A stretch of 64,000 nt of DNA from Escherichia coli (GCF_024223415.1 NZ_CP100500.1); one strand, 5' to 3'. Positions 27,198 to 56,425 are shown, numbered from the stretch's first letter. Translations and numbers: made by a program. Notes: generated by a model not told the origin, from the letters alone.

Positions 27198-28022
27198 TTA
27201 TCGCATTATGCCCATGAAGCCATGTACGCCCATATACACACCGACTAAGCCAATCAACAGACTGGAAAAATAGGGGGCGCGTTTAGCGAGAGTGTTAAAT
27301 CCGCTCCAGCGTTTTGCGACCTGCTGAACGCTGATTGCTGCGCCAACGCCTACGGTGACAAGCGTTAACGCCAGGCCAATGCTGAAACTGACGACCAGTG
27401 TTGCGCCCAGTGTCAGGGCTTTCAACTGAATGCAAATCAACAGCACGGTAATTGCTGCCGGACAGGGGATAAGACCACCTGTTAAGCCAAATAACAAAAT
27501 TTGCCAGTTGGTGACCTCTCTACCATCAAAGCGTCGTTTAATATCATTGGCATGGGCTCGTGCATGGGCATCCTGATACTCGCCATGTTCGTGATGGTGA
27601 TGATGTCCATGGTCGTGGTGATCTTCGTGATCGTGGTGATGATGTTCATGATCATACTCGTGCATATTCTCCAGCCAGTTGCGTTCGCCGCGCCAGGTAC
27701 GCCAGAACATCCAGAACGCGGTGCCAATAATGATCACTGCGGAAATCAGCTGGAGCCACGGTTCTGCTGATTGAGCAGTAAAGCGCTTGCTGATCACCAT
27801 CCCGCCAAAGGCAATTAACCAGACCACTGCGGTATGCGAAATAGTTGCTGCCAGTCCGAGCATCACCGCCTGTTTAATGGTGCCTTTGATGGCGATGATA
27901 AACGCCGCCATCATCGTTTTTGAGTGCCCTGGTTCCAGGCCATGAAGCGCACCAAGTAAGATGGCGCTGGGGATGAAGAACCAGGCGTTTCCTTGCTGAA
28001 GAAGAGTTGTAAATTCGGTCAT
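27198..28022 (-). CDS. rcnA: Nickel/cobalt efflux pump RcnA
   Basis: 274-aa membrane protein with a His-rich loop (HEYDHEHHHHDHEDHHDHGHHHHHEHG). Confidence 0.92.
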   Translation of the reverse strand: MTEFTTLLQQGNAWFFIPSAILLGALHGLEPGHSKTMMAAFIIAIKGTIKQAVMLGLAATISHTAVVWLIAFGGMVISKRFTAQSAEPWLQLISAVIIIGTAFWMFWRTWRGERNWLENMHEYDHEHHHHDHEDHHDHGHHHHHEHGEYQDAHARAHANDIKRRFDGREVTNWQILLFGLTGGLIPCPAAITVLLICIQLKALTLGATLVVSFSIGLALTLVTVGVGAAISVQQVAKRWSGFNTLAKRAPYFSSLLIGLVGVYMGVHGFMGIMR

Positions 28023-28143: not shown

Positions 28144-28416
28144 ATGTCTCATACAATCCGTGATAAACAGAAACTGAAAGCGCGTGCCAGTAAGATTCAG
28201 GGCCAGGTCGTGGCGCTCAAGAAAATGCTCGACGAGCCGCACGAATGCGCTGCAGTTTTACAACAGATTGCTGCTATCCGTGGCGCGGTAAACGGTCTGA
28301 TGCGGGAAGTGATTAAAGGTCATCTGACGGAACACATCGTTCACCAGGGGGATGAGCTAAAACGTGAAGAAGATCTGGATGTCGTTCTGAAGGTGCTGGA
28401 TTCATATATCAAATAA
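28144..28416 (+). CDS. rcnR: Ni/Co-responsive repressor RcnR (CsoR/RcnR family)
   Basis: 90-aa protein [21 protein letters not shown], in the K-12 position. Confidence 0.92.
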
Positions 28417-28510
28417 TTTATTAACGCGATTGTAAAACTGCCGTTTTTCCTCGTTTACAACGCGTGCGCTGGACATTACCATCCTCCTCTGCGATTTATC
28501 ATCGCAACCA

Positions 28511-28557
28511 AACGACTCGGGGTGCCCTTCTGCGTGAAGGCTGAGAAATACCCGTAT
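28511..28557 (+). promoter_or_regulatory. 5' half of the thiM TPP (THI-box) riboswitch aptamer, cut off by the island
   Basis: aacgactcggggtgcccttctgcgtgaaggctgagaaatacccgtat equals the 5' part of the crystallised E. coli thiM aptamer. Similarity ends abruptly at 28557. Confidence 0.88.
28544..28557 (+). repeat. attL core (direct repeat copy 1)
   Basis: agaaatacccgtat is identical to 39954-39967. Confidence 0.8.
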
Positions 28558-28642
28558 TTTCTCATTTAGTGTTTTTTGTGGTTCGGGGTTGTTCGTGGTT
28601 GTTTGTGTATGTGTTTGATATATATTGAATTATTGTGTTTTC

Positions 28643-28718
28643 TTGTTTGTTGTTGTTCGTCGTTGTTCGTAGAGCTTCAACAAAATGTGTGGTCAGTTGT
28701 GTGGTCAGTTTTTTGAGG
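28643..28718 (+). repeat. Left-arm copy of a ~75-bp repeat shared by both island arms (candidate Int arm-type sites)
   Basis: 28653-28712 is 60/60 identical to 39831-39890. It contains tandem GTGTGGTCAGTT x2 and TTGTTCGT x2, and a further GTTGTTCGT copy lies near 28594. Confidence 0.8.
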
Positions 28719-28745
28719 CTGGAGGACTGAAAAGAGGATCTGATA

Positions 28746-29969
28746 GTGGGAAAAGCACTAAACAAACTGAGCGATTCGACGTTAAAAAAATTGGCGTCTG
28801 TCCAAGCAGAAAAAGAGCGTTTTTACTCCGACGGGGGCGGGCTGGAGATTAAACACTCAAAGGGCGGCAAATTAACCTGGTATTTCCGGTACCGAACGGG
28901 AGGCCGTGAGGTTGCCGCAGAGCGGTTAAAGCTGGGGGCTTACCCTGAATTGTCGCTGAAAGCTGCAAGGGAAAAACGCGCACAGTGCCGGGCATGGCTG
29001 GCTGAGGGTAAAAACCCCCGTTATGAGTTGTGCGCCACAGTACAGGAAGCGCTAAAACCCGTTACGGTGAAGGAGGCGATTAACTACTGGCTGGATGAAT
29101 ATGCGAAGGATAACCGCAAAGACTACATAAAGCTGGTGCAACGTATGGATAAGCACATCATTTGCCATATAGGGGCAATTCCCCTTGATAAGTGTGATAC
29201 AAGGCAGTGGATCGCATGTTTTGACCGTGTACGAAAAAAAGCACCAGTAGCAGCAGGGCACGTCATGCAAACCTGCAAACAGGCGCTAAAGTTCTGCCGC
29301 AGGAGACGCTACGCGTTCAGTAATGCCCTGGACGATTTGATCGTCAGCGATGTGGGTAAGAGAGCAGAAATTCGCGAGAGGGTGCACAGCAACAGCGAAT
29401 TAAAGGAAATTTTACGCGCTATTGATGGTGATGTGTTCGCGCCTTACTACAGCGCGTTAATGCGCTTGCTGATTGTGTTCGGGTGCAGAACGGCAGAGGT
29501 CAGACTTTCAGAGATCAAAGAATGGGATCTGAAAGAAATGTTGTGGACAGTGCCAAAAGAGCATAGCAAAACGAAGGTAACGATATTCAGGCCAATCCCC
29601 GATGGCATTTTGCCGTTCATTCAGAAGCTGGTGGAGCAGAACCGGCATACAGGGTTATTACTCGGAGAACTGAAAAAAGATACCACGGTAGCGCAATATG
29701 GGCGAAATGCGCATAAGCGGCTTAACCAGGAACACTGGACGCTGCATGACTTTCGCCACACGTTTACAACGATGCTGAACGATTTAGGTGTCGATCCGCA
29801 TATCGTGGAGCACATCACAGCGCATCAGATGCCCGGTCAGCAAAAAACCTATAACCATTCACGCTATTTACAGGCGAAGCGAGACGCTCTGAATCTGTGG
29901 GTTGAGCGCCTCGATGTGCTGGCTGGAAATCATGAAAATATTGTCATATTAAGGGCTGAAAATGAATAA
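28746..29969 (+). CDS. int: Tyrosine recombinase, P4-type integrase
   Basis: GTG start with a GAGGA RBS 7 nt upstream. The N-terminus resembles an arm-binding domain (GGGLEIKHSKGGKLTWYFRYR). The C-terminus has HDFRHTF...HQ...Y catalytic motifs. Confidence 0.9.
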   Translation: MGKALNKLSDSTLKKLASVQAEKERFYSDGGGLEIKHSKGGKLTWYFRYRTGGREVAAERLKLGAYPELSLKAAREKRAQCRAWLAEGKNPRYELCATVQEALKPVTVKEAINYWLDEYAKDNRKDYIKLVQRMDKHIICHIGAIPLDKCDTRQWIACFDRVRKKAPVAAGHVMQTCKQALKFCRRRRYAFSNALDDLIVSDVGKRAEIRERVHSNSELKEILRAIDGDVFAPYYSALMRLLIVFGCRTAEVRLSEIKEWDLKEMLWTVPKEHSKTKVTIFRPIPDGILPFIQKLVEQNRHTGLLLGELKKDTTVAQYGRNAHKRLNQEHWTLHDFRHTFTTMLNDLGVDPHIVEHITAHQMPGQQKTYNHSRYLQAKRDALNLWVERLDVLAGNHENIVILRAENE

Positions 29970-30747
29970 TCTGGGCCGTGTATATCATACGCTGCCAATG
30001 GCAGCTAAAAAAATGGGATGTACTGTAGAGGATATTCTACATTTTGGTGCAACTAACCGACTTGAAATATGTGCGTATATTGATGATATTGAACAGAGAA
30101 AAGATTATTGCACTTTTAATGTGTTTTTTGATAATGAAGATAGCGAGAATAGTTTTTCTAAAACTATAAATAAATATAATTCCATATTTACTGACATGTA
30201 TGAAATATCATTGTTTAATTATAATGATGAGTTTTGTGTTGATGATGAGCGTATGGTTATTGAAGGTTTGTATGCTAATCATATGAAAGGCTTTTTTGCA
30301 ATACCATCTGAATTTCTTGTCGAAGTTGAATTGTCAAGTGCCTGTGAAATCATAAATCTATCGCCTCGTTATTTATATACACCGAAAGGTTATGGTGATT
30401 ATATTCGGTTGGATAGTATAGAAGGTCTTTCTATTCCAGAAAACAGGCTCGTGATATTCGATAGTGAGATATCGGGTTTTAATTATCAAAAGAAACCTAA
30501 ATATGCCGGAGGTGAAAGAGAATCACCTAAAACCAGAGCTAAAAAAGCCGAGATAATACCTGCTCTCATAAAACTGATCCCTGAGATGCAAGATGTGGAT
30601 TTGGAGGATACACCCGTATCCAAAATTGCAGAAATGATAGAGGTTATTGCTGCACAAAGAGGGGTTGAGTTACCTAGCACTCACAGGCAGACATGGCAGA
30701 AATATTTAGGGCGTGATGCTGGTGACGTTCCAAAACGTCAAAAGTGA
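29962..30747 (+). CDS. Hypothetical 261-aa protein, strongly AT-rich cargo-like gene, with possible N- and C-terminal HTH-like segments
   Basis: The ATG overlaps the int stop (ATGAATAA). I recognise no family. Composition is visibly more AT-rich than its neighbours. Confidence 0.6.
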   Translation: MNNLGRVYHTLPMAAKKMGCTVEDILHFGATNRLEICAYIDDIEQRKDYCTFNVFFDNEDSENSFSKTINKYNSIFTDMYEISLFNYNDEFCVDDERMVIEGLYANHMKGFFAIPSEFLVEVELSSACEIINLSPRYLYTPKGYGDYIRLDSIEGLSIPENRLVIFDSEISGFNYQKKPKYAGGERESPKTRAKKAEIIPALIKLIPEMQDVDLEDTPVSKIAEMIEVIAAQRGVELPSTHRQTWQKYLGRDAGDVPKRQK

Positions 30748-30774
30748 TATCACGTACAGATAGTGTGATATCAC
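30744..30774. promoter_or_regulatory. Pair of perfect 10-bp palindromes GTGATATCAC upstream of alpA (candidate operators)
   Basis: Copies at 30744-30753 and 30765-30774, offset by 21 bp (two helical turns). Confidence 0.6.
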
Positions 30775-30803
30775 ACAAACGGCATTTTACCACCGCCTAG
30801 AAT

Positions 30804-30837
30804 CGTCCTCGTTCGGCAACGTTCGAGGACGTTTTTT
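30804..30837 (+). terminator. Hairpin plus T-run directly abutting the alpA start; its 3' arm contains the alpA Shine-Dalgarno
   Basis: cgtcctcg (30804-30811) pairs with cgaggacg (30824-30831) and is followed by TTTTTT, then the ATG at 30838. Confidence 0.6.
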
Positions 30838-31062
30838 ATGAATCAAAATACACAATTTCAATCACTATCAGATCGCGTAATCCGTGAGGATGAATGCCGT
30901 AAGTTAACAGGAGTGTGCCGCACTACACGCTACGAACTGGAGAAAAAAGGGAGCTTTCCGTCTCGCCGTAATCTTGGTGGGCGTTCTGTAGGTTGGCTGC
31001 TGTCCGAGGTTATGGAATGGGTTAAAAGCCGGGATCGCATTAATTCAGGCAAGGCAGCGTAA
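30838..31062 (+). CDS. alpA: AlpA-family (prophage CP4-57 regulatory / excisionase-like) DNA-binding protein
   Basis: 74 aa with the motif RVIREDECRKLTGVCRTTRYELEKKGSFPSRRNLGGRSVGWLLSEVMEWV, typical of the AlpA/Vis family. Confidence 0.85.
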   Translation: MNQNTQFQSLSDRVIREDECRKLTGVCRTTRYELEKKGSFPSRRNLGGRSVGWLLSEVMEWVKSRDRINSGKAA

Positions 31063-31080
31063 AGGGGAGTATATGACACA

Positions 31081-31109
31081 TAAAACAAAGGCGACCGGGG
31101 GCGGTCGCC
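31081..31109 (-). terminator. Terminator for the leftward two-gene repressor operon (convergent with alpA)
   Basis: The ggcgaccg/cggtcgcc 8-bp stem is followed on the minus strand by TTTGTTTTA. Confidence 0.55.
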
Positions 31110-31200
31110 AATGGGAAAACACTAAACATAAGCCCGGCCATCATAGCGATTTGCTGGCTGGTGGGCAATGTGTCCAGTGTGGTGGCTTGCTGGTGGATTG

Positions 31201-31428
31201 TCAGCCAGGCGGTCGGTTTTTGCCGGATTTAAGCCGCCGTGGGTATTTATCGACAAAATCTTCAAGGGCAAATTTTTCTGGTGGCACTAAGCGCGGCGCT
31301 GGTGGTGGTATTTTTGTTCTGGTTAGTTCTTCCTCAAGTCTGGCGCAGGCTTCTGACTGCCTTTGCCGGATGATTTCATCATCTTGCGTTTGCGTGTCTT
31401 GTATTGGTGATAGTGTGTTGTTGGTCAT
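31201..31428 (-). CDS. Hypothetical 75-aa protein, second gene of the leftward operon
   Basis: ORF downstream of the RHH gene on the same strand, with a weak RBS. It competes with a 336-codon plus-strand ORF that I judge spurious. Confidence 0.45.
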   Translation of the reverse strand: MTNNTLSPIQDTQTQDDEIIRQRQSEACARLEEELTRTKIPPPAPRLVPPEKFALEDFVDKYPRRLKSGKNRPPG

Positions 31429-31485
31429 GATACTGCCCTGTAAAGCAATGCGCCGTAGTACCTCACACCACGGCGCTGATAGTGA

Positions 31486-31683
31486 TTATTCTGATTCTTT
31501 GGCCTTGCGGCGCTGTTCATATTTTAATTTGCGTCCACAGGCATCTAAGACCCATGCGGAAAAATTAGCACTAGGATTAGTTAATTTTTCTTGTTCAACG
31601 CTGGCATCAATCCCATCTATAAGCTCATGTGGGAATCGAATATTTTTCTTTGCTGATTTGTTGTTTGTGTTACCACTAGACAT
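31486..31683 (-). CDS. Small ribbon-helix-helix (Arc/CopG-like) DNA-binding protein, candidate island repressor
   Basis: KKNIRFPHELIDGIDASVEQEK...FSAWVLDACGRKL fits a beta-strand plus two-helix RHH pattern. It has a good RBS (GAGGTG 7 nt upstream) and is divergent from the operator cluster. Confidence 0.6.
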   Translation of the reverse strand: MSSGNTNNKSAKKNIRFPHELIDGIDASVEQEKLTNPSANFSAWVLDACGRKLKYEQRRKAKESE

Positions 31684-31710
31684 TGATGCACCTCACTTAA
31701 ATGGACTTTA

Positions 31711-31790
31711 TGGGCGCACACAATACAGCAAAAAAAGTGAGAAGTTAAGTATTGACATGTGCGCACACATGATTCTAATCTGTGCGCACA
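31711..31790 (+). promoter_or_regulatory. Divergent control region: three TGTGCGCACA palindromic operators overlapping a rightward sigma70-like promoter
   Basis: Perfect palindromes at 31758-31767 and 31781-31790, plus a 9/10 copy at 31711-31720. TTGACA (31752-31757), a 16-bp spacer and TCTAAT (31774-31779) form the promoter. Confidence 0.65.
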
Positions 31791-31882
31791 GTTTGGGTTG
31801 CATTGCTCAAATTAAGCAACGCCCCGCAGTGCTCGCAACACATGCAGGGCGTCTAACCAAACCGTTAATAGGAGTAACGATT

Positions 31883-32083
31883 ATGGCTGGAACACAGCAT
31901 ACCCCACGCCTTGCGCACACACAAACCGCCTTTGTGTGGCGTTTTCTGGCACTGAGTGCCGGAGAATCTCAAATTATCCACGTAACCGCCTGGACGGAAC
32001 GCGAAGCGCGTAACCGTTGCCCGTCCGGTTGTGTCGCTGTATTCGCCGCCCGTATCCGTCAGGGGGAAACCTATGCACAATAA
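31883..32083 (+). CDS. Icd-like (P4 host cell division inhibitor-like) small protein
   Basis: 66 aa, MAGTQHTPRLAHTQTAFVWRFLALSAGESQIIHVTAWTEREARNRCPSGCVAVFAARIRQ. It has an AGGAG RBS. It resembles the family annotated Icd-like in P4-type islands (from memory). Confidence 0.6.
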   Translation: MAGTQHTPRLAHTQTAFVWRFLALSAGESQIIHVTAWTEREARNRCPSGCVAVFAARIRQGETYAQ

Positions 32084-32303
32084 AACAACACCGGACGCAG
32101 CAGAAGAAGCAATGCAAATACTGATACGTGCGCTCGTTGATGTTACCCACATGGTGGAGATTATGGAGAGAAAATCACAGTCGGAGCACGACAAAAGAAA
32201 ACTTAAAACAATAAAAATAATTGCCAAAAACTCGCTGATAAAAGTTACAGACATCCTTAATGAGGACATTAAAAGAATCAGGGAGAAAGTGTGTGATGCA
32301 TAA
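32073..32303 (+). CDS. Hypothetical 76-aa helical protein
   Basis: The start ATG overlaps the icd-like stop (ATGCACAATAA) and has an AGGGGGA RBS. Confidence 0.5.
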   Translation: MHNKTTPDAAEEAMQILIRALVDVTHMVEIMERKSQSEHDKRKLKTIKIIAKNSLIKVTDILNEDIKRIREKVCDA

Positions 32304-32523
32304 AATACCTTTTGATGTTCTTATTCATTCTGAAAACGCATTAATCCGTGCAAAGGAAATGGACGCATTACTACTTAAGTTAATTGATGTGCCGGAAAGT
32401 GGCGATGAATCTGATTCAATAATGTTTTCTGCCGTGCGTACGCTATTAACGCATGTTATTAATGAATTAAATACAGTGATGGCAATTCACGAGAATAATA
32501 AAGCGCAGCACACCGGAGAATAA
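32296..32523 (+). CDS. Hypothetical 75-aa protein
   Basis: The start overlaps the previous stop (ATGCATAA) and has a GGGAGA RBS. Confidence 0.5.
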   Translation: MHKIPFDVLIHSENALIRAKEMDALLLKLIDVPESGDESDSIMFSAVRTLLTHVINELNTVMAIHENNKAQHTGE

Positions 32524-32528
32524 AAACC

Positions 32529-32828
32529 ATGAAAAATAAAAATTCTGGCGTTAATGCCAGCGGCCCCGCTCGGCCTGAATTTATGAACGGCGATATTTAC
32601 CGCGACCAGTACGGCGGCACGGTAACGATTAAAGGCGTGGAGGAACGGCGCATCACTTACCGCCGTGAAGGCTACGAATATGATTGCGTGATGCCTGTTT
32701 ATCAGTTCCGGCGTGATTTTTCTCTGGTACAGGCAGCGCCCCGCAGTAAACCAACCAGCAGGGAGAAAGCACGCGCCAATATTCAGGAAATAAAAAAGAT
32801 GCTTAACGTATTCAGGGGTAAAAAATGA
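32529..32828 (+). CDS. Hypothetical 99-aa protein (DUF4222-like, common in enterobacterial prophage-like elements)
   Basis: The motif GDIYRDQYGGTVTIKGVEERRITYR supports the family assignment, which is from memory only. Confidence 0.5.
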   Translation: MKNKNSGVNASGPARPEFMNGDIYRDQYGGTVTIKGVEERRITYRREGYEYDCVMPVYQFRRDFSLVQAAPRSKPTSREKARANIQEIKKMLNVFRGKK

Positions 32829-34573
32829 AACTGGCACCGAACGTAAAAAAACAGCCGCGTGGAATAAAACACAAAGACACAGAGGTGATTATCTTTGCGG
32901 GTAGTGATGCCTGGGCGCACGCGAAACAGTGGCAGGAACAGGACGGCCCCGCATCCGGCGATGATGTGCCGCCTGTGTGGCTCGGGCCAAATCAGCTTGC
33001 TGAACTGGATGCACTGAAAATTGTACCGGAGGGAAAAAAACGCGTAAGGCTGTACAGGGCCGGAGAACTGGATTTGGTGGAGACCAAAAAGATTGGTCAG
33101 AAGCTGGCGGCGGCAGATATTCAGGATGCGAATTTTTACTCTGAAGGAATGCACGGCCAGAAGGTGCAGAACTGGCGGCGCTATCTGAGTGCTGAGCGTG
33201 AAAATATTGCCGCAGGGCTTACCATGCCGGAACAGAAAAAAGCACAACTTTCACAGATGGCAGACAGTGAACGGGCACAGCTTCTTTCTTCCCGCTTTGA
33301 TGGTGTCTGCGTCCATGCAGAAAGTGAAATCGTTCACGTATGGCGCGGCGGGGTATGGTGTCCGGTCAGCACAATGGAACTTAGCCGCGAAATGGTGGCG
33401 ATCTATTCAGAGCACAGGGCCACTTTCAGCAAGCGCGTAATCAATAACGCCGTGGAAGCGTTAAAAGTTATTGCCGAACCAATGGGCGAGCCGTCCGGCG
33501 ATTTGCTGCCGTTCGCCAATGGTGCGCTTGACCTGAAAACGGGGGAATTTTCCCCGCACACGCCGGAGAACTGGATCACCACGCACAACGGCATTGAGTA
33601 CACGCCACCAGCACCAGGGGAGAATATCTGCGACAACGCGCCAAACTTTCATAAATGGCTTGAGCACGCAGCCGGAAAAGACCCGCGCAAGATGATGCGT
33701 ATATGTGCCGCGCTGTACATGATTATGGCGAACCGGTACGACTGGCAGATGTTTATTGAGGCCACCGGAGACGGCGGGAGCGGCAAAAGTACATTCACAC
33801 ACATAGCCAGCCTTCTGGCAGGGAAACAGAACACGGTAAGCGCTGAGATGACATCGCTTGATGATGCTGGTGGGCGTGCGCAGGTTGTCGGGAGTCGGCT
33901 TATTGTCCTGGCAGACCAGCCGAAATATACAGGCGAAGGAACGGGCATCAAGAAAATCACGGGCGGAGACCCCGTGGAAATAAACCCGAAATATGAGAAG
34001 CGTTTTACGGCGGTAATCAGGGCGGTGGTGCTGGCTACCAACAATAACCCGATGATATTCACCGAACGGGCCGGAGGTGTGTCACGTCGTCGCGTAATTT
34101 TCCGTTTCGACAATATCGTCAGTGAGGCTGAAAAAGACAGGGAGCTACCGGAAAAGATTGCGGCTGAAATCCCTGTCATTATCCGCCGCTTGCTGGCGAA
34201 CTTTGCCGACCCTGAAAAGGCACGGGCTTTACTCATTGAACAGCGAGACGGTGATGAAGCTCTGGCAATAAAGCAACAGACGGATCCGGTTATTGAGTTT
34301 TGCCAGTTTCTGAATTTTCTGGAGGAAGCGCGCGGCCTGATGATGGGCGGCGGCGGTGACTCTTCCAGGTACACGACCAGAAACAGCCTTTACCGCGTCT
34401 ATCTGGCGTTTATGGCGTATGCAGGCAGGAGCAAACCGCTAAACGTAAATGACTTTGGCAAGGCTATGAAGCCAGCGGCGAAAGTTTACGGACATGAATA
34501 TATAACGCGCAGGATTAAAGGGTTTACGCAAACCAACGTGACAACAACAGACGACTGCGACGCGTTTTTATAA
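32825..34573 (+). CDS. Replication initiator/helicase, phage-plasmid primase P4-family C-terminal type (SF3 helicase); primase activity of the N-terminus is uncertain
   Basis: NGALDLKTGEF motif, Walker A GDGGSGKST and Walker B LIVLAD. ATGA overlap with the upstream gene. Iterons lie immediately downstream. Confidence 0.85.
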   Translation: MKLAPNVKKQPRGIKHKDTEVIIFAGSDAWAHAKQWQEQDGPASGDDVPPVWLGPNQLAELDALKIVPEGKKRVRLYRAGELDLVETKKIGQKLAAADIQDANFYSEGMHGQKVQNWRRYLSAERENIAAGLTMPEQKKAQLSQMADSERAQLLSSRFDGVCVHAESEIVHVWRGGVWCPVSTMELSREMVAIYSEHRATFSKRVINNAVEALKVIAEPMGEPSGDLLPFANGALDLKTGEFSPHTPENWITTHNGIEYTPPAPGENICDNAPNFHKWLEHAAGKDPRKMMRICAALYMIMANRYDWQMFIEATGDGGSGKSTFTHIASLLAGKQNTVSAEMTSLDDAGGRAQVVGSRLIVLADQPKYTGEGTGIKKITGGDPVEINPKYEKRFTAVIRAVVLATNNNPMIFTERAGGVSRRRVIFRFDNIVSEAEKDRELPEKIAAEIPVIIRRLLANFADPEKARALLIEQRDGDEALAIKQQTDPVIEFCQFLNFLEEARGLMMGGGGDSSRYTTRNSLYRVYLAFMAYAGRSKPLNVNDFGKAMKPAAKVYGHEYITRRIKGFTQTNVTTTDDCDAFL

Positions 34574-34586
34574 TTTTTTGTAATTG

Positions 34587-34814
34587 CTGTCTACCCTGTC
34601 TACCTGAGTAAAGAAAAATACATTTAATTCAGTGCATTAAGTTAGGTAGATAGCCTTTTTTTACTGTCTACCCACTATCTACCCTCTCTACCTGATTTTA
34701 CCAGAATCAGACAGGGAGGTAGACACGGGGTAGATAGTGGATAAAAGCACTCTACCCCGCTGAAAGCCGCGCCATTACTGGCATGAGGGCCACTAAGGTA
34801 GGTAAGGTAGACAA
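34587..34814. other. Candidate island replication origin: iteron cluster (C)TGTCTACC / GGTAGA(C/T)A
   Basis: Direct copies at 34587, 34596, 34664, 34675, 34684 and 34751. Inverted copies at 34645, 34718, 34729 and 34806. The cluster lies in the 288-bp non-coding gap after the replicase gene. Confidence 0.75.
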
Positions 34815-34861
34815 GGGGAGGCACAACTCAAAACTTTTTAAACGAGGGGGTAAAAATAAAA

Positions 34862-35119
34862 ATGCACACATCAGAAAAATTTAACAATCAGAAGAAATCA
34901 CATAACCGCGCCATTGACCTTACAGAGCACTGGCTGAGGGTGGCGATAAAAATCATCGACCGCAACGCGGGAGAAGGATACGCGAAAGCACATCCCGAAC
35001 TGATAAGCGCATTCATGACCACAGCGGCGGCAAACTTTGCCACGTTGACAGAACGGGAGATTGCCGAAGCGGAACAGGTGACAACCATCAATGTTAAAAC
35101 CGGAGAGCAGACAGCATGA
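34862..35119 (+). CDS. Hypothetical 85-aa protein
   Basis: ORF with a GAGGGGG RBS. Its stop overlaps the ssb start. Confidence 0.5.
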   Translation: MHTSEKFNNQKKSHNRAIDLTEHWLRVAIKIIDRNAGEGYAKAHPELISAFMTTAAANFATLTEREIAEAEQVTTINVKTGEQTA

Positions 35120-35526
35120 CAGCACAGATAGCGGCTTACGGGCGGCTGGTGGACGACCCGCAGACAAAACAGACCAGCAAGGGAACACCGATGACGCTGG
35201 CACGTATGGCGGTATCGCTGCCATGCAGCCAGGCACAGGATGGACAGGCGACGTTATGGCTATCGGTCATCGCATTTGGTAAGCAGGCCGACTTCCTGGC
35301 TAAACATCAAAAAGGCGACGTTGCCAGCGTATCCGGCACGATGCAGGTCAGCCAGTGGACCGGACAGAACGGGGAAACGCGGCAGGGTTATCAGGTTATT
35401 GCAGACAGCGTAATCAGTGCCCGTGCGGCACGTCCTGGCGGGAACAGACGCAAAACCACAGGCACACAGGGTAATCAGCCACCAGCGGGAGGCGATGACC
35501 CTTACGGTGATGATATTCCGTTCTGA
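35116..35526 (+). CDS. ssb: Single-stranded DNA-binding protein
   Basis: OB-fold-like N-terminus, a Gly/Pro/Gln-rich linker and the canonical acidic tip DDIPF at the C-terminus. Confidence 0.85.
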   Translation: MTAQIAAYGRLVDDPQTKQTSKGTPMTLARMAVSLPCSQAQDGQATLWLSVIAFGKQADFLAKHQKGDVASVSGTMQVSQWTGQNGETRQGYQVIADSVISARAARPGGNRRKTTGTQGNQPPAGGDDPYGDDIPF

Positions 35527-35536
35527 GGGGGTGACG

Positions 35537-35809
35537 ATGGTACATGACCGGATAGCGGAGGAACTGGAGGCGAAAGGATTTTACCGGAGGGCGGCCGCGC
35601 GATGGGGTGAAGTTATGAGGCTGGTGAGCACTGACAAGGAGCGCGAACAGGTGGCAATGCGACGGCTGGAATGTTCACAGAAGGCACAGAGGCCACCGGA
35701 GCCGCCGGATGATTTAGGCGCTCTGAAAAGGTCAGTTAATCGCACTGAAAAACAAATGGGGATAGCTGGTATTGGCAAAGCAATATGGCGCAACTACCCG
35801 CAGAAGTGA
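35537..35809 (+). CDS. PerC-family-like transcriptional regulator (90 aa)
   Basis: MVHDRIAEELEAKGFYRRAAARWGEVM resembles the PerC/Pch N-terminal signature (from memory). The start was chosen at the ATG with a GGGGGTGA RBS, not the longer ORF-track form. Confidence 0.55.
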   Translation: MVHDRIAEELEAKGFYRRAAARWGEVMRLVSTDKEREQVAMRRLECSQKAQRPPEPPDDLGALKRSVNRTEKQMGIAGIGKAIWRNYPQK

Positions 35810-35815
35810 GCACAC

Positions 35816-35839
35816 AGCCGGAGCAATCCGGCTTTTTTG
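35816..35839 (+). terminator. Rho-independent terminator ending the replication/regulation operon
   Basis: agccgga-gcaa-tccggct followed by TTTTTG. Confidence 0.75.
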
Positions 35840-35844
35840 CACCC

Positions 35845-35889
35845 AAAAAAAGCCCGATAAGTACAGGAGGCATCTTATCGGGCTTTTGC
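35845..35889. terminator. Second, bidirectional-looking hairpin terminator
   Basis: AAAAAAA-gcccgataag...cttatcgggc-TTTTG. Confidence 0.6.
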
Positions 35890-35966
35890 ATATGAGGTTT
35901 TTTTTGGTGCACTGACACACATGATCGGGATAATCATTTCATAATTTGCAACGTAACTCAATATTG

Positions 35967-36016
35967 TTGCGCAAAATGCAATCATGATTATAATCAGGAC
36001 TGGATGAACATCCAGT
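35967..36016 (+). promoter_or_regulatory. Candidate promoter of the capsid operon, followed by a perfect hairpin/palindrome
   Basis: TTGCGC (35967-35972), a 16-bp spacer and a perfect TATAAT (35989-35994) inside the palindrome TGATTATAATCA. This is followed by ACTGGATG-AA-CATCCAGT (35999-36016). Confidence 0.5.
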
Positions 36017-36050
36017 TATGATTTTTTAAGTCAAAGAGGAATTTCTGACT

Positions 36051-36257
36051 ATGGCAGAAGAGAAAAAAGGCGGGGTGACGGTCTACATAAGCCCCGACAT
36101 CGTGGAGGCGCTCAAGGAACGCCACCAGCAGAATGTAAAAGCAGGCATTGCGGCAGGACTTGATCCGCTGGCGATGGTTGAGCCGTCAACAGGCTGGCAG
36201 GTGCGTACCTATTTACGTGCGGCGCTGGGTATCAATCAGGTTCACGGAGGTGAATAA
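36051..36257 (+). CDS. Hypothetical 68-aa protein, first gene of the capsid module
   Basis: AGAGGA RBS. Its stop overlaps the capsid gene start (TAATG). Confidence 0.55.
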   Translation: MAEEKKGGVTVYISPDIVEALKERHQQNVKAGIAAGLDPLAMVEPSTGWQVRTYLRAALGINQVHGGE

Positions 36258-37312
36258 TGACAGGCAAAGCAACGGCACTTACAACTAACCAGCTTTTCGC
36301 GTACCTGAATCGCGGGGATATTTCGGAATTAAAATTCAGTCCGCTGTTTACCACGCTGTTTTTCCCGAACGTGGCGACCTTCAACACCCAAAACATCATG
36401 CTGGACACCCTGGACATTGAAGAGGTTACGATGTCAGCGTTCTGTTCGCCTATGGTGGGTAGTCAGGTCCAGCGCGATAAAGGGTACGAAACCAGCACAA
36501 TCAAACCTGGCTACATGAAGCCAAAGCACGAAATCGATCCAACAAAGACCATCATGCGCATGGCTGGAGAAGATCCGGCACAGCTTAACGACCCAACCTA
36601 TCGCCGTATGCGCCTGATTACTGGCAACATGCGCCGCCAGGTAAACGCCATTAAAGCGCGTGTTGAATGGCTGGCGGTGAATGCGGTAACGACCGGAAAA
36701 AACATCATTGAGGGCGAAGGCATAGAACGCTATGAAATCGACTGGAAAATACCGGAAAACTGCATCATACAGCAGGCCAGTGGTAAAAAATGGTCCCAGC
36801 AGGATAAAGACATGCACGACCCAATCTATGACATCGAGCTTTATGCTGATCAGGCAGGTTGCCCCGCCAACGTCATGATTATGGGCGGTGAGGTATGGCG
36901 CACATTACGCAGCTTTAAAAAATTCCGTGAACTGTACGATCTTTCCCGTGGATCAGAATCCGCCGCCGAGCTGGCCTGTAAAAACCTGGGCGAAGTGGTG
37001 AGCTTTAAAGGCTATCTTGGTGATCTGGCCCTTATCGTCTATTCCGGCAAATACACTGACAGCGACGGCACCGAAAAATATTTCCTTGAGCCTGATTTGC
37101 TGGTCCTGGGTAACACCAATAATAAAGGGCTGGTGGCATATGGTGCGATTATGGATCAGGAAGCGGTAAGAACGGGCGCAACGCAAAACATGTACTACCC
37201 GAAAAACTGGATTGAGGACGGCGATCCGGCGATTGAGTACGTGCAGACGCACAGCGCACCGCAGCCGGTACCGGCAGATATTCGCAAATTTGTTACCGTC
37301 AAAATTGCTTAA
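36257..37312 (+). CDS. Major capsid protein, lambda gpE family
   Basis: Collinear similarity to lambda gpE as recalled: PGYMKPKHEIDP vs PGYVKPKHEVNP, DPTYRRMRL vs DPAYRRRRI, and YPKNWIEDGDPAIEYVQTHSAP vs YPKNWVTTGDPAREFTMIQSAP. Length is 351 aa against 341 aa for gpE. Confidence 0.88.
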   Translation: MTGKATALTTNQLFAYLNRGDISELKFSPLFTTLFFPNVATFNTQNIMLDTLDIEEVTMSAFCSPMVGSQVQRDKGYETSTIKPGYMKPKHEIDPTKTIMRMAGEDPAQLNDPTYRRMRLITGNMRRQVNAIKARVEWLAVNAVTTGKNIIEGEGIERYEIDWKIPENCIIQQASGKKWSQQDKDMHDPIYDIELYADQAGCPANVMIMGGEVWRTLRSFKKFRELYDLSRGSESAAELACKNLGEVVSFKGYLGDLALIVYSGKYTDSDGTEKYFLEPDLLVLGNTNNKGLVAYGAIMDQEAVRTGATQNMYYPKNWIEDGDPAIEYVQTHSAPQPVPADIRKFVTVKIA

Positions 37313-37323
37313 CGGGGGATTCT

Positions 37324-37659
37324 ATGGACGCTCCATATATTGAGTTATTTGCAGGCAGCCAGCAGGTATCCACGACGCTGGTACATTTTGCCGCTGATGC
37401 TGGCGTTATTCAGGAATTTACCCCGCTGATGCTGGCAGACAATGGCGAGTTTAAGGCGTGGGATGGTCAGGAATCTGGCAAAGCTGTTTATCTGACTTCG
37501 CACCCCGTGGACACGTCAAAGCAGAAATCAGCACAGTGTTACAAAACGGGGATATTCAATATTGCCGCCGTTAACTGGCCTGACAGCGTCGACACCGATG
37601 CGAAAAAATGCGCCGCCTTTGCGGGTTCCGGCGTATCCGTTCAGCCGCTGGCCCGATAA
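37324..37659 (+). CDS. Head decoration protein, lambda gpD-like
   Basis: 111 aa. FTPLMLADNGEFKAWDG vs lambda MTPLMLDTSSRKLVAWDG, and YKTGIFNIAAVNWP...KKCAAFAGSGVSV vs YKSGTFRYEDVLWP...KKRTAFAGTAISI. Confidence 0.8.
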   Translation: MDAPYIELFAGSQQVSTTLVHFAADAGVIQEFTPLMLADNGEFKAWDGQESGKAVYLTSHPVDTSKQKSAQCYKTGIFNIAAVNWPDSVDTDAKKCAAFAGSGVSVQPLAR

Positions 37660-37671
37660 GCAGGGGGAACG

Positions 37672-38085
37672 ATGGCAACGAATGAAAGTATCATGACGCT
37701 ACCGCTGGCGAGTAAATTTAAAGCCGAAGCGCGGGCAATGGCTGACAGAGGTTTATCAACCTACGAGGCCATACACCGACTAAACAAACTGGAAGAACAG
37801 GACAAGCCGCGCGCTGATGCGATTATGGCGCTTCATGAATCTGACGACTACCAGCCGCTGTTACGTGCAATGGCTAACGTGCCTTGTATCGATGTTGGTA
37901 CGGCTAAAAGCATCCTTAGCATGACCATAGAGCAGGAACGCCCGAAGGTTGCACCAGAGCTTACTTCAGCCTTTGAAAACTTTATGGACATGCACAGCCC
38001 GAAAGCCGTATCAGCTGGCATGGCATACGATGGCAGAACCCCGTGCGATGACGGCGACATCGACCGCATACTGAAAACCATCTGA
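37672..38085 (+). CDS. Hypothetical 137-aa protein in the capsid module (function unknown; a scaffold or size-determination role is only a guess)
   Basis: ORF with a GGGGGA RBS, last gene before the terminator and cos site. Confidence 0.55.
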   Translation: MATNESIMTLPLASKFKAEARAMADRGLSTYEAIHRLNKLEEQDKPRADAIMALHESDDYQPLLRAMANVPCIDVGTAKSILSMTIEQERPKVAPELTSAFENFMDMHSPKAVSAGMAYDGRTPCDDGDIDRILKTI

Positions 38086-38090
38086 GACAA

Positions 38091-38114
38091 GGCCGGAGAA
38101 ATCCGGCTTTTTTT
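38091..38114 (+). terminator. Rho-independent terminator after the capsid module
   Basis: ggccgga-gaaa-tccggc followed by TTTTTTT. Confidence 0.75.
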
Positions 38115-38116
38115 GC

Positions 38117-38190
38117 GGGTCCTTTCCGGCATGTGGACCCGTTACGGGGCGTCGACCTCGCACGTTTTCGCTATTTATGACGTTTTTCCG
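38117..38190 (+). other. cos site 1 (plus orientation): lambda-like cosQ-cosN and the beginning of cosB
   Basis: gggtcctttccgg...cccgttacGGGCGTCGACCTcgcacgttttcgctatttatga matches recalled lambda gggtcctttccgg...ggttacgGGGCGGCGACCTcgcgggttttcgctatttatga. The 12-nt overhang equivalent is at 38147-38158 (11/12 identical to lambda). Confidence 0.8.
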
Positions 38191-38247
38191 TGAAGGTGAC
38201 ACCACCACCACTTGATTAATATTTAACCATGTAGTTAAGGTAACATT

Positions 38248-38682
38248 ATGATTGATAAAGCTTGTTTTGTAAGTCAGCAGGAAATAGCTGAACATTTCAA
38301 TGTTAACAGAACCACTATTCGCGCATGGACCAAACAGGGGATGCCGTATCTTAATGCGGATCGCGGAAAGTCTGGCGGTTATCACATCGGGCATACATTG
38401 TTTTGGTATTCAGGTAAAAGCCATCTTCAGACCATCGGATATCACGTAGAAACCAGTGCGCTGGAAAAAATTATGTTTGCCAGGCTGCTTTCATCTGAGC
38501 GTGACGAGTACTCCAGTGAAGAAACAGAACATCGATTTGATGAAGGTTTGCAGATTTACGGCTATTCACCGGAAGATGTGAGCAAGGCACGAAATAAAAT
38601 GGCTGGCTTTCTGGCTGGGTGGCGTCATGCCGTAAGCGTTCGCCGTGCCAGCATGGAGCAATCAGCCGATACAGAACAGTAA
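38248..38682 (+). CDS. Small terminase subunit, lambda Nu1-like (winged HTH N-terminus)
   Basis: VSQQEIAEHFNVNRTTIRAWTKQGMPYLNADRGKSGGYHIGHTLFWY parallels Nu1 KKQLADIFGASIRTIQNWQEQGMPVLRGGGKGNEVLYDSAAVIKWY. It lies just downstream of cos site 1, as Nu1 does in lambda. Confidence 0.75.
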   Translation: MIDKACFVSQQEIAEHFNVNRTTIRAWTKQGMPYLNADRGKSGGYHIGHTLFWYSGKSHLQTIGYHVETSALEKIMFARLLSSERDEYSSEETEHRFDEGLQIYGYSPEDVSKARNKMAGFLAGWRHAVSVRRASMEQSADTEQ

Positions 38683-38720
38683 AGCCGATAACTTGTTAAT
38701 CACGCGCAGCAATGCGTGTG

Positions 38721-38847
38721 ATTTTTGCACACTTCCGGTTAACGGGTACGATGTCCGGTTTGTTTGTACATTTTTTGCACATGTCCGGTTCGCAGAAAGC
38801 ATGTTTTTATATTTTTCAGATAGTTAACTTGCAGAGAAACCGGACAT
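38721..38847 (-). promoter_or_regulatory. cosB-like array of small-terminase binding-site candidates (ATGTCCGGTT repeats) belonging to cos site 2
   Basis: TTCCGGTT at 38733-38740. ATGTCCGGTT at 38751-38760 and 38781-38790. An inverted AACCGGACAT at 38838-38847. An AT-rich spacer at 38800-38830. Two copies carry the extended motif TTTTTGCACA. Confidence 0.6.
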
Positions 38848-38850
38848 GGA

Positions 38851-38930
38851 TCCCGAAAAATTTTCATAAATAGTGAAAACGCGCGGGTTCGACGCCCCGT
38901 AACGGGCCATAATTCCAGAAGGACCCGACG
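38851..38930 (-). other. cos site 2 (minus orientation): second lambda-like cosQ-cosN, convergent with cos site 1
   Basis: The minus strand reads gggtccttctgg...cccgttacGGGCGTCGAACCcgcgcgttttcactatttatgaaaattttt. The overhang equivalent is at 38886-38897 (9/12 to lambda). An 18-nt core (38889-38906) is identical to 38138-38155. Confidence 0.75.
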
Positions 38931-38960
38931 ACACCAGACTATCAGAGCGATGGGGGCACA

Positions 38961-39242
38961 ATGACAGAAGCCGAACTACTGGGATTAATCCGCCGCGTTA
39001 CCGGAATCAGCCAGCAGCATGACGAACAGGCCACGCAGCCGGACAGCGTGACCGCCGAAAATTATGTGCGTGTTGTTGCGGAGGTGATGCGCCGTGACGG
39101 TATTGAGCTTAACGGCGTGGATATGCGCGACATACGGATCCGCGTTCTGGAAATGCTGGCATACCGTCGCCGCGTGCAGACGTACAGGGAAAAAGCAAAA
39201 ATAACGTACCACTGGAAGAAGCCGGAACGACTGCGTACGTAA
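38961..39242 (+). CDS. Hypothetical 93-aa protein
   Basis: ORF with a GGGGG RBS. It ends in the palindrome CGTACGTA-A-TACGTACG (39233-39249). Confidence 0.45.
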   Translation: MTEAELLGLIRRVTGISQQHDEQATQPDSVTAENYVRVVAEVMRRDGIELNGVDMRDIRIRVLEMLAYRRRVQTYREKAKITYHWKKPERLRT

Positions 39243-39261
39243 TACGTACGGACATCGAGAT

Positions 39262-39506
39262 AACGCAAAATTGCGCTGGCTACATCCCTCACATCTGAGG
39301 ACTGATAACAAGCTGCCTGAAAGACAGTCACAAACTACGAAATTTTCGCAGTTTAATTAATGGTCAGCTTAATCGCTAACCCGCTGATATTTTCGGAAAC
39401 ATCAATTTGAGGAAGTCGGCGCGGTAACTCGCTGAACTTAAAGCAAAGCGCAAAATTGCGCTGATTACTGGTTGGAATTGTTCCAGAGTGCAAATTTGCA
39501 CTCTGG
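39262..39506. repeat. Set of related inverted repeats (GCGCAA-AA-TTGCGC type) plus a 24-bp perfect palindrome
   Basis: aacgcaaaattgcgct at 39262-39277, agcgcaaaattgcgct at 39447-39462, and ccagagtgcaaatttgcactctgg at 39483-39506. Confidence 0.7.
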
Positions 39507-39667
39507 CCTAACCCGTTGATTATTTCGAAAACCTGCAATGCAGGAAATCGGGGAAGTAAGCCTAAGCTATTGATTGTTTCGAAAACCACCATTGGGGGAT
39601 GTCGGGAAAGTAAGACTAACCCATTGATTCTTCCACAATCCTCAATGTGAGGAGGCCGGACATCGTG
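39376..39667. repeat. Four degenerate ~54-bp repeat units (three in exact tandem phase) in the right arm of the island
   Basis: Units start at 39376, 39508, 39562 and 39616. Consensus is CTAACCCnTTGATTnTTTCGAAAAC plus a short hairpin plus GTCGG..AGTAAG. Confidence 0.75.
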
Positions 39668-39820
39668 ACAGAGCGTGACAACCAGGTAACTAATCTCGCT
39701 GGTGGGCGTGATGTCGATATGGTGATCCCCATAACGGGTTATCCGTGATCATCCACCAGCTTCATGGCAGATAGCCGGAAAATGATAACGGTTAAGCAAA
39801 ACTGCCAGCAAATTTCCCTT

Positions 39821-39894
39821 TTGTTTGTTATTGTTCGTCGTTGTTCGTAGAGCTTCAACAAAATGTGTGGTCAGTTGTGTGGTCAGTTTTGAGG
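39821..39894 (+). repeat. Right-arm copy of the ~75-bp repeat shared by both island arms
   Basis: 39831-39890 is identical to 28653-28712. Confidence 0.8.
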
Positions 39895-39953
39895 TTTTTA
39901 ATTCTTATGTGCTGAAAAACTTATTAATTATCAACTGATAACAAAAATTAGTA

Positions 39954-39967
39954 AGAAATACCCGTAT
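39954..39967 (+). repeat. attR core (direct repeat copy 2)
   Basis: agaaatacccgtat is identical to 28544-28557. Confidence 0.8.
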
Positions 39968-40048
39968 CACCTGATCTGGATAATGCCAGCGTAGGGAAGT
40001 CACGGACCACCAGGTCATTGCTTCTTCACGTTATGGCAGGAGCAAACT
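39954..40048 (+). promoter_or_regulatory. 3' half of the thiM TPP riboswitch aptamer plus its expression platform
   Basis: agaaatacccgtatcacctgatctggataatgccagcgtagggaagtcacgg...ggcaggagcaaact continues the thiM aptamer exactly where 28557 stops and runs to the thiM ATG. Confidence 0.88.
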
Positions 40049-40837
40049 ATGCAAGTCGACCTGCTGGGTTCAGCGCAATCTGCGCACGCGTTACACCTTT
40101 TTCACCAACATTCCCCTCTTGTGCACTGCATGACCAATGATGTGGTGCAAACCTTTACCGCCAATACCTTGCTGGCGCTCGGTGCATCGCCAGCGATGGT
40201 TATCGAAACCGAAGAGGCCAGTCAGTTTGCGGCTATCGCCAGTGCCTTGTTGATTAACGTTGGCACACTGACGCAGCCACGCGCTCAGGCGATGCGTGCT
40301 GCCGTTGAGCAAGCAAAAAGCTCTCAAACACCCTGGACGCTTGATCCAGTAGCGGTGGGTGCGCTCGATTATCGCCGCCATTTTTGTCATGAACTTTTAT
40401 CTTTTAAACCGGCAGCGATACGTGGTAATGCTTCGGAAATCATGGCATTAGCTGGCATTGCTAATGGCGGACGGGGAGTGGATACCACTGACGCCGCAGC
40501 TAACGCGATACCCGCTGCACAAACACTGGCACGGGAAACTGGCGCAATCGTCGTGGTCACTGGCGAGATGGATTATGTTACCGATGGACATCGTATCATT
40601 GGTATTCACGGTGGTGATCCGTTAATGACCAAAGTGGTAGGAACTGGCTGTGCATTATCGGCGGTTGTCGCTGCCTGCTGTGCGTTACCAGGCGATACGC
40701 TGGAAAATGTCGCATCTGCCTGTCACTGGATGAAACAAGCCGGAGAACGCGCAGTCGCCAGAAGCGAGGGGCCAGGCAGTTTTGTTCCACATTTCCTTGA
40801 TGCGCTCTGGCAATTGACGCAGGAGGTGCAGGCATGA
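40049..40837 (+). CDS. thiM: Hydroxyethylthiazole kinase
   Basis: 262 aa, [32 protein letters not shown], in the K-12 position. Confidence 0.95.
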
Positions 40838-41634
40838 AACGAATTAACGCTCTGACGATTGCCGGTACTGATCCGAGTGGTGGTGCGGGGATTCAGGCCG
40901 ATCTTAAAACCTTCTCGGCACTTGGCGCTTATGGTTGCTCAGTTATTACTGCACTGGTGGCGCAAAATACCCGTGGCGTACAGTCGGTGTATCGCATTGA
41001 GCCTGATTTTGTCGCCGCCCAGCTCGATTCGGTGTTCAGCGATGTGCGAATCGATACCACTAAAATCGGTATGCTGGCGGAAACCGATATTGTTGAAGCG
41101 GTGGCAGAACGGTTGCAACGTTATCAGATCCAAAACGTGGTACTCGACACCGTTATGCTGGCAAAAAGCGGCGACCCGCTGCTTTCACCTTCGGCGGTTG
41201 CTACGCTGCGCAGTCGATTATTGCCACAGGTTTCATTAATAACGCCAAACTTGCCCGAAGCTGCCGCCTTGCTCGACGCGCCACACGCGCGCACCGAACA
41301 GGAAATGCTGGAACAAGGGCGATCGCTGTTGGCGATGGGCTGTGGCGCAGTGCTAATGAAAGGTGGTCATCTGGATGATGAGCAAAGCCCGGACTGGCTG
41401 TTTACCCGCGAGGGTGAACAACGGTTTACCGCACCGCGCATTATGACCAAAAACACCCACGGCACTGGTTGTACACTCTCTGCGGCGTTGGCTGCACTAC
41501 GCCCGCGCCATACAAACTGGGCTGACACCGTACAGGAGGCAAAAAGCTGGCTTTCATCGGCGTTAGCCCAGGCCGACACGCTGGAAGTTGGTCACGGTAT
41601 TGGTCCGGTTCACCACTTCCACGCCTGGTGGTGA
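40834..41634 (+). CDS. thiD: Hydroxymethylpyrimidine/phosphomethylpyrimidine kinase
   Basis: 266 aa, [29 protein letters not shown] overlap with thiM. Confidence 0.95.
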
Positions 41635-56341: not shown

Positions 56342-56425
56342 GAAACGGATGATAACCTTAATAAATGCAGCTGTATGTGATCGGTTTCTAAGAATTTTCC
56401 ATCCGGGAAAAATAATCGAAATTAA

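Follow-up and report, generated by a model that had tools for sequence, protein, structure and literature searches.

A putative phage satellite of Escherichia coli integrated inside the aptamer of the thiM TPP riboswitch

Phage-inducible chromosomal islands, here called PICIs, belong to the phage satellites. One of those described in Gram-negative bacteria, EcCI224 of Escherichia coli strain Ecol_224, occupies 10.6 kb (CP018948.1, 1961620-1972242), with the core AGAAATACCCGTAT and 'frmR-thiM' given as the gene of its attachment (att) site (Fillol-Salom et al. 2018, ISME J, PMC6092414 Table S1). The att site is called intergenic in that paper, and the term 'riboswitch' is absent from both the paper and its supplements (PMC6092414). 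Here an island with the identical core at the identical position was analysed in a window of 64,000 nt from Escherichia coli (GCF_024223415.1, NZ_CP100500.1; coordinates are counted from the first base of the window), where it lies inside the aptamer of the thiamine pyrophosphate (TPP) riboswitch that precedes thiM and thiD (thiMD). The element, its exact core and its position are already published. The reading of its target as a riboswitch, which was put forward in a first-pass annotation made by a model from the window alone, is apparently unreported: it is absent from the 2018 paper, and a search of open-access papers and bioRxiv turned up none that describes integration into thiM or into any riboswitch.

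Several other described systems are close to this locus. Helper-embedded PICIs (PMC10111431) and cases of 'active lysogeny' likewise place a co-oriented satellite inside a transcription unit of the host or of a prophage and wire it in cis; what the helper-embedded PICIs interrupt, however, is a late gene of their helper phage that codes for protein and whose regulatory logic has been analysed, whereas a metabolic riboswitch is interrupted here. In a length of about 11 kb, a unidirectional int-alpA-primase order and dedicated intergenic att sites, EcCICFT073 and other Gram-negative PICIs resemble the window island, and of 29 reference PICIs 21 have a capsid gene (PMC10111431). EcCICFT073 differs in its integrase, its att site (ycfD-phoQ) and its core GGACATATTT; its helper dependence and packaging were shown experimentally, while for the window island both are predictions. 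Elements that target tRNA and tmRNA genes use a short core within a conserved structured RNA. These elements, and those in the 4.5S RNA gene ffs, share with the window island a tyrosine integrase and a short core in a highly conserved structured RNA, but their target is an RNA gene and not a cis-regulatory aptamer, and they carry a copy of the displaced segment that restores the target, whereas the window island restores nothing. The phage att site in ffs is the closest published case (PMC12540744).

The core is present exactly twice in the window, once at each end of the island (28544-28557 and 39954-39967), against a chance expectation of 0.01. Beyond these 14 bp, identity between the flanks stops immediately on both sides, and the island measures 11,410 bp from core to core. 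When 28380-28557 was joined to 39968-40150, the resulting 361 nt contained a single core and gave a gapless match at 100% identity to the rcnR / TPP riboswitch / thiM region of many complete E. coli genomes. In a census of 5,426 complete E. coli genomes, at least 80% of this joined sequence was present in a single piece in 4,728, and 86 had no contiguous riboswitch. The left junction of the window was found in 71 genomes and the right junction in 74 (about 1.3%), Ecol_224 itself being among those with window-type junctions. The island is inserted site-specifically inside the thiM TPP aptamer at the 14-bp core, without repair of the target. The alignment and the genome survey that the first-pass annotation had suggested bear out in full what it had described at the level of sequence: a 14-bp direct repeat at both junctions, flanks that re-join into a contiguous thiM leader, occupied and empty sites among E. 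coli genomes, aptamer halves lying 11.4 kb apart with the thiM ATG at 40049, a riboswitch as the integration target, a P4-type integrase gene just inside the left junction (its open reading frame (ORF) starts 189 nt past the core), and island genes nearly all pointing towards thiM (every family-matched ORF is on the + strand).

The aptamer was examined with the Rfam model RF00059, for which the gathering threshold is 54.3 bits. No TPP riboswitch reached the gathering score anywhere in the window, whereas the intact aptamer of the uninterrupted reference site, in E. coli strain ER1709, scored 71.2 bits. With permissive thresholds, the left half (28508-28557 followed by island sequence) scored 19.5 bits and the thiM-proximal half (39880-40014) 36.4 bits, the latter with every P1-P3 pair broken. 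No complete P1-P5 aptamer that would qualify as a functional RF00059 copy stands before thiM, and a second complete THI-box upstream of thiM was sought and not found. In the Rfam alignment, the 14 bp of the core span the end of J3-2 (AGA of CUGAGA), the 3' strand of P2 (ACCC) and J2-4 (GUAU). The split of the aptamer was as first described, with one refinement to the content of the halves: because the core itself contains the 3' strand of P2, the left junction retains a complete P2/P3 arm, together with the thiM promoter region and the 5' strand of P1. On the thiM side there remain only the core, AGAAAUACCCGUAU, P4/P5, the expression platform and, of P1, the 3' strand. That island sequence might restore the aptamer was considered and ruled out, since the island end agrees with the aptamer over no more than 14 bp and the thiM side is sub-threshold with P1-P3 unpaired. 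Integration in the style of tRNA and tmRNA elements, with the target restored, was not seen for the window island and was seen for islands of the MRE162/H8/PI6 type described below. At occupied sites of the window type, PGAP annotates no riboswitch (RefSeq L002, L003), so the disruption is invisible in standard annotation.

Crystal structures and biochemistry of the thiM THI-box place TPP between the P2/P3 and P4/P5 arms, where it stabilises P1, and the ligand-stabilised P1 drives a switch that hides the ribosome-binding site. It follows from this structure that the thiMD leader of the window has lost TPP sensing, because its RNA is without the P1 5' strand, P2 and P3 and TPP bridges both arms. 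Promoters were sought by a consensus scan, which weak promoters escape. The only promoter-like site of the native leader (28454-28482) lies to the left of the island, so thiMD appears to have lost its own promoter, and its transcription would have to come from inside the island. In the 1.4 kb upstream of int, the scan gave no other promoter-like site on the + strand, and no terminator-like site was found between this one and int in the scanned region. Transcription from the thiM promoter would be expected to cross the orphan P2/P3 arm and to enter int, which starts 189 nt past the core. Two overlapping sites at 38196-38252 are the nearest and only candidates for read-through to thiM, weak ones whose number equals the chance expectation. 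On balance we lean slightly towards thiMD being expressed in a TPP-blind manner, by read-through or from weak promoters; a strong reduction of its expression appears distinctly less likely.

Gene families of the island were assigned by PHROG and Pfam for 19 ORFs and compared with the definition of Gram-negative PICIs given by Fillol-Salom et al. 2018. The int, alpA and primase genes follow one another on the + strand as in these elements (Table 1), the size of 11,410 bp lies within their range of about 8-15 kb, and the short direct repeat at a dedicated att site is the EcCI224 core. Lytic genes and a complete structural set are lacking: an E-type capsid, a D-type decoration protein and a terS-like gene were recognised, and portal, TerL, tail and lysis genes gave no PHROG or Pfam match among the island ORFs. 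The island is very probably a Gram-negative PICI of the EcCI224 att group that was inserted into the thiM aptamer by its own integrase. A P4-like satellite was rejected as a classification, as only the integrase is of P4 type; the P4-specific genes (sid, psu, delta and cnr/plasmid functions) had no PHROG or Pfam match among the 19 ORFs. A capsid-forming PICI was likewise rejected because its own head and packaging set was not found, the portal, prohead protease, head-tail connectors and large terminase having no matches in the window island.

Compared with EcCI224, the window island is 94% identical in int and the left arm, 87% in alpA and 96% in the right arm. The middle of EcCI224 differs, with a ClpP-protease/capsid fusion gene and a DUF1441 gene, whereas in the window island the lambda E-type capsid and the D-type decoration protein are encoded by separate genes, an SSB-like gene is present and the regulators are different ones. 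The capsid-forming PICI of strain SMS-3-5 (955625-970780) has the integrase protein of EcCI224, the same att arms and the same split of the thiM aptamer, but also encodes complete head and packaging functions (portal, protease, connector, HNH, TerS and TerL), a set that is not in the window island. At least three backbones are thus found at this site, namely the window island, EcCI224 and the 15-kb SMS-3-5 island. Common to the three are only int together with the left arm (94%), alpA (87%), the last ORF (80-82%) and the right arm (93-96%), which makes the integration module a portable cassette.

Carriers of the window-type junctions came from humans, livestock, wildlife and water. A cluster of 588 sequences from E. 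coli matches the window integrase at 99% identity. Four further integrase clusters are 71-76% identical, two of them named Salmonella enterica; all four, when looked up, lie downstream of rcnB and show the junction GGCTGAGAAATACCCGTAT|T(T/A)TCTAA(C/T)TTAG, in a thiM-type aptamer at the same core. Integrases at 67-68% identity are found at other PICI sites of the catalogue, beside cspD and beside a lysR-type gene. Because the relatives at 71-76% share the core and those at 67-68% use other sites, the sequences point to a distinct integrase clade specialised on the thiM aptamer across two genera. Among species-representative genomes, a peptide scan found no relatives of the integrase, and the attL pattern had no match.

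A second att site was found in the same aptamer, 27 nt downstream of the first core, in other E. coli genomes. Its junction (...GGATAATGCCAGCGTAG|) falls in L5/P5/J5-4, with the core at ...AATGCCAGCGTAG, at the loci L004:12381-12476 and 19993-20092, L016:6366-6460 and 20083-20178, and L018:15980-16074 and 27173-27269. The islands of MRE162, H8 and PI6 at this site resemble the window island in locus, orientation, length (about 11-14 kb) and an integrase beside the left junction. Their integrases, however, are unrelated to that of the window (BLASTP E = 1.1 for MRE162 and H8), and those of MRE162 (433 aa) and H8 (452 aa) are 66% identical to each other. Intact islands at the second site carry their own aptamer copy of about 72 nt at the right end, which differs in the P3 loop and in one J2-4 base, and the riboswitch rebuilt before thiM scores 73-75 bits. 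In MRE162 a second, nearly full aptamer copy (60.5 bits) stands upstream of the integrase gene at a distance of 69 nt, and the PGAP annotation shows one TPP riboswitch on each side of the island, whose cargo includes a SIR2-family protein and a HigB-type toxin. The second-site lineage, when its islands are intact, repairs its target like a tRNA-targeting element, and the window lineage does not.

For the second site, a left junction of the MRE162/ECONIH5 type was matched in 190 genomes and one of the H8 type in 36, counts that may overlap. The thiM aptamer is duplicated by an unrelated island in roughly 4% of finished E. coli genomes, and both sites together are estimated to be used in 260-300 genomes (about 5%), in agreement with 305 extra riboswitch fragments. 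A few second-site elements are decayed remnants that leave the riboswitch split. In one of these, ECONIH5, and in related strains (L017:19962-22366, L005:18001-23265), a remnant that consists of a partial integrase and IS3 lies between riboswitch and thiM; because this remnant is fixed, thiMD is permanently apart from its leader in these strains.

The arrangement in the window very probably arose when the P4-like tyrosine integrase recombined the 14-bp core of the island with the identical sequence in the thiM aptamer. The target is likely to be used for the reason that also applies to tRNA and tmRNA genes: an invariant and strongly selected aptamer would offer a reliable landing pad. The island has no copy of its target, and the aptamer stays split while the island is integrated. 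thiMD keeps only P4/P5, the P1 3' strand and the platform, which leaves it blind to TPP by the known structure and apparently cut off from its own promoter. The thiM promoter with the orphan P2/P3 arm would in turn point into int, and nothing like a terminator was found on the way. The riboswitch is predicted to be rebuilt exactly when Int, with AlpA, excises the island.

Certain points weigh against this account. The rationale of a conserved landing pad, an aptamer present in nearly every E. coli and in Salmonella, is an analogy. Mobility of the window island is a prediction, and no circular attP junction was matched in viral and metagenome contigs. The first-pass annotation had thiMD deprived of its native promoter and TPP-blind, which the separation from 28454-28482 and the failure to rebuild the aptamer support, and dependent on an island-derived or read-through promoter, for which the scan gave no backing: no + strand promoter-like site was found in the last 1.7 kb before thiM (38300-40048), and the AT-rich stretch 39880-39953 at the right island end has only 3 of 6 matches to a -10 hexamer. 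Two terminator-like hairpins upstream in the island suggest that thiMD is perhaps nearly silent and not constitutive. Folding of the new thiM leader left the ribosome-binding site open or closed depending on the 5' end assumed, and the folds contained the ON-type helix (GGGAAG:CUUCUU) as well as the OFF-type one (CUUCUUC:GGCAGGAG).

These observations on promoters and hairpins (35812-35838 and 38087-38113) would fit a polar knock-down, in which thiMD is left with no usable promoter and carriers need external thiamine or live on traces of ThiD; satellite genes are, moreover, generally quiet until helper-phage induction (PMC6092414). Against it, both genes are undamaged in this window and at all the occupied sites that were inspected, the ThiD protein does not differ from that of empty sites, and the many unrelated isolates that are occupied argue that the cost is not large. 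Very little ThiD may suffice, and a consensus scan misses weak promoters. We regard a knock-down as unlikely, if still worth serious consideration. E. coli takes up and salvages external thiamine, and the claim made at first pass, that the host is under pressure to keep thiMD expressed, was on this ground overstated. An immobile remnant, with the split a historical accident of one lineage, would account for the failure to match an attP junction in viral or metagenome collections and for the lack of occupied sites in species-representative genomes, and decayed remnants do exist at the neighbouring att site (ECONIH5). The int, alpA, primase and capsid genes are, however, full-length and the direct repeats perfect, and an int/att module on three backbones, in many unrelated strains and in Salmonella, indicates repeated independent integrations; we hold this explanation to be improbable.

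A reversible regulatory switch of the 'active lysogeny' or regulated-gene-integrity kind, in which excision restores TPP control to the benefit of the host, would draw on the same precise excision, the single 14-bp core being duplicated, and on the co-orientation of the island with thiM. Nothing links thiamine status to PICI induction, though, and when a helper phage induces a PICI, its excision is normally followed by packaging and the death of the cell (PMC6092414). Since the att sites of other PICIs are ordinary intergenic regions, the site can be explained without any special switch, and such a role seems even harder to credit than a fixed remnant. A chance repeat or an assembly artefact, with no interruption of the riboswitch at all, has nothing in its favour and practically no probability left: a chance expectation of 0.01 per window for the 14-mer, the gapless 100% re-joining of the flanks and the same junctions in more than 70 independently finished genomes already refute it. 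Integration of a PICI by its own integrase, without repair of the aptamer, is accordingly the reading we prefer.

The thiM THI-box is a textbook TPP riboswitch, and about 1.3% of finished E. coli genomes have a copy split by a satellite. If the preferred reading is right, thiMD is uncoupled from thiamine sensing in these strains and carriers have an altered thiamine regulation. They would serve as natural experiments on the fitness contribution of the riboswitch, on thiMD freed of TPP control and of its native promoter, and on satellites that exploit host promoters and aptamers for int. A cis-regulatory RNA would be added to the structured RNAs known as integration targets (tRNA, tmRNA and 4.5S RNA). 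The published 'intergenic' label of the EcCI224 att site is corrected, and its use across genera, with an unrelated and target-restoring class of islands beside it, is new context for that site; annotation pipelines silently drop the riboswitch where it is occupied. A wider generalisation is conceivable but falls somewhat short of probable, namely that riboswitch aptamers form a so far unrecognised class of landing pads like tRNA genes. In enterobacteria, two unrelated lineages of tyrosine integrases would then each be specialised on the thiM THI-box, one rebuilding it with a second aptamer before int and the other splitting it, with int placed under the thiM promoter and carriers being natural riboswitch knockouts.

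Table 1. Features of the island and its flanks, in window coordinates.
Feature	Position	Strand	Basis
Promoter-like site in the original thiM leader, TTTACA-17-TACCAT, which here lies upstream of attL and int	28454-28482	+	Consensus scan; putative function
5' part of the thiM TPP aptamer: P1 5' strand, P2, P3, J3-2 (CUGAGA), P2 3' strand	28508-28557	+	Rfam alignments; 100% identical to empty-site genomes
Left copy (attL) of the 14-bp core AGAAATACCCGTAT	28544-28557	.	Core identical to that listed for EcCI224
Left att arm of the island	28558-28745	+	94% identical to left ends of EcCI224 and the SMS-3-5 island
Tyrosine integrase (int), P4-like type, 407 aa	28746-29969	+	Pfam Arm-DNA-bind_3 and Phage_integrase; PHROG integrase
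261-aa ORF, in place of the EcCI224 DUF6387 gene	29962-30747	+	No Pfam or PHROG match
alpA (regulator/excisionase-type helix-turn-helix protein)	30838-31062	+	Pfam Phage_AlpA 4.4e-16; PHROG excisionase/regulator
336-aa ORF, C-terminal part repressor-like	31073-32083	+	PHROGs 29966, 1743, 6196
Two small ORFs (87 and 99 aa) before the primase gene	32260-32828	+	phrog_2196, phrog_285
Primase/helicase (replication protein, D5-type, 582 aa)	32825-34573	+	PHROG DNA primase 7.8e-168; Pfam D5_N, DUF5906, Pox_D5
Small ORF, SSB-like protein (35116-35526) and transcriptional-activator-like ORF (35417-35809)	34862-35809	+	PHROGs 1231, 44, 994/10396
Intrinsic-terminator-like hairpin GCCGGAGCAATCCGGC, then T run	35812-35838	+	Read from sequence
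Capsid module: 68-aa ORF, lambda E-type major capsid (36257-37312), lambda D-type head decoration (37324-37659), 137-aa ORF	36051-38085	+	Pfam Phage_cap_E 1e-50, HDPD 1.7e-17; PHROGs
Second terminator-like hairpin GCCGGAGAAATCCGGC, then T run	38087-38113	+	Read from sequence
Two overlapping promoter-like sites before the last island genes	38196-38252	+	Consensus scan; number equals chance expectation, weak
Last island genes: terS-like/helix-turn-helix ORF (38248-38682) and conserved 93-aa ORF (38961-39242)	38248-39242	+	phrog_57, phrog_1561
Three imperfect 54-nt direct repeats, 70-78% identical, non-coding, before the right att arm	39374-39613	.	Repeat search, family D1
Right att arm	39694-39953	+	Conserved in all three island backbones, 93-96% identity
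attR copy of the 14-bp core	39954-39967	.	Exact repeat count
3' part of the aptamer (P4, P5, P1 3' strand) and thiM expression platform with Shine-Dalgarno	39968-40048	+	Rfam 36.4 bits; 100% identical to empty-site genomes
thiM (40049-40837, 262 aa; ATG 40049) and thiD (40834-41634, 266 aa), both intact	40049-41634	+	ORF list; lengths equal ER1709 annotation

Both island ends carry a 70-nt direct repeat, at 28643-28712 and 39821-39890 (99% identical), and within each copy lies a tandem GTGTGGTCAGTT doublet (28687-28710 and 39865-39888). A doublet of the form GTG(T/A)GGTCAGTT was also found upstream of the Salmonella int genes, as a GTGTGGTCAGTT doublet or as GTGAGGTCAGTT. The GTGTGGTCAGTT doublets are probably arm-type integrase sites that would flank the core in the excised circle. 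In the attL RNA fold of E. coli, a G-U-rich partial complement forms a helix between the leader and the island end (z = -2.7). In a Salmonella attL (L006:9770-9850), AGTCGTC occurs about 27 nt past the core and is the exact complement of the P1 5' strand GACGACT; it may close the orphan P2/P3 arm into a hairpin, and a chance occurrence is possible.

Inside the island, the 99-aa ORF directly upstream of the primase gene takes the position of the DUF4222 gene in EcCI224, and the 93-aa ORF near the right end is 80-82% identical at the DNA level in EcCI224 and the SMS-3-5 island. The two terminator-like hairpins are nearly identical to each other (GCCGGAG(C/A)AATCCGGC and a T run) and bracket the capsid module. 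Across the island, no near match longer than 158 nt was found to 50,697 phage records. The longest, 38751-38908, matches PhiR12 phages at 88.6% over 158 nt, inside a 'hypothetical protein', and sits among inverted repeats (38124-38193 with 38851-38920, and 38743-38766 with 38832-38855); this region is possibly a helper-related cos/pac region. A separate stretch of 50 nt (39611-39660) matches roi/anti-repressor genes at 90-94%. The three 54-nt repeats before the right att arm are possibly iterons or a packaging signal, and a 79-aa minus-strand ORF with no family match (39353-39592) overlaps them. Base composition was considered as a mark of the island and showed nothing notable, at 38-54% G+C in the island and 42-54% in the flanks. 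The other Rfam matches in the window were the small RNA CyaR (56258-56343, -), the OrzO-P antitoxin RNA (9456-9531, -), which belongs to a type I toxin-antitoxin locus, and naRNA4 (47869-47939, +), all three being ordinary E. coli features.

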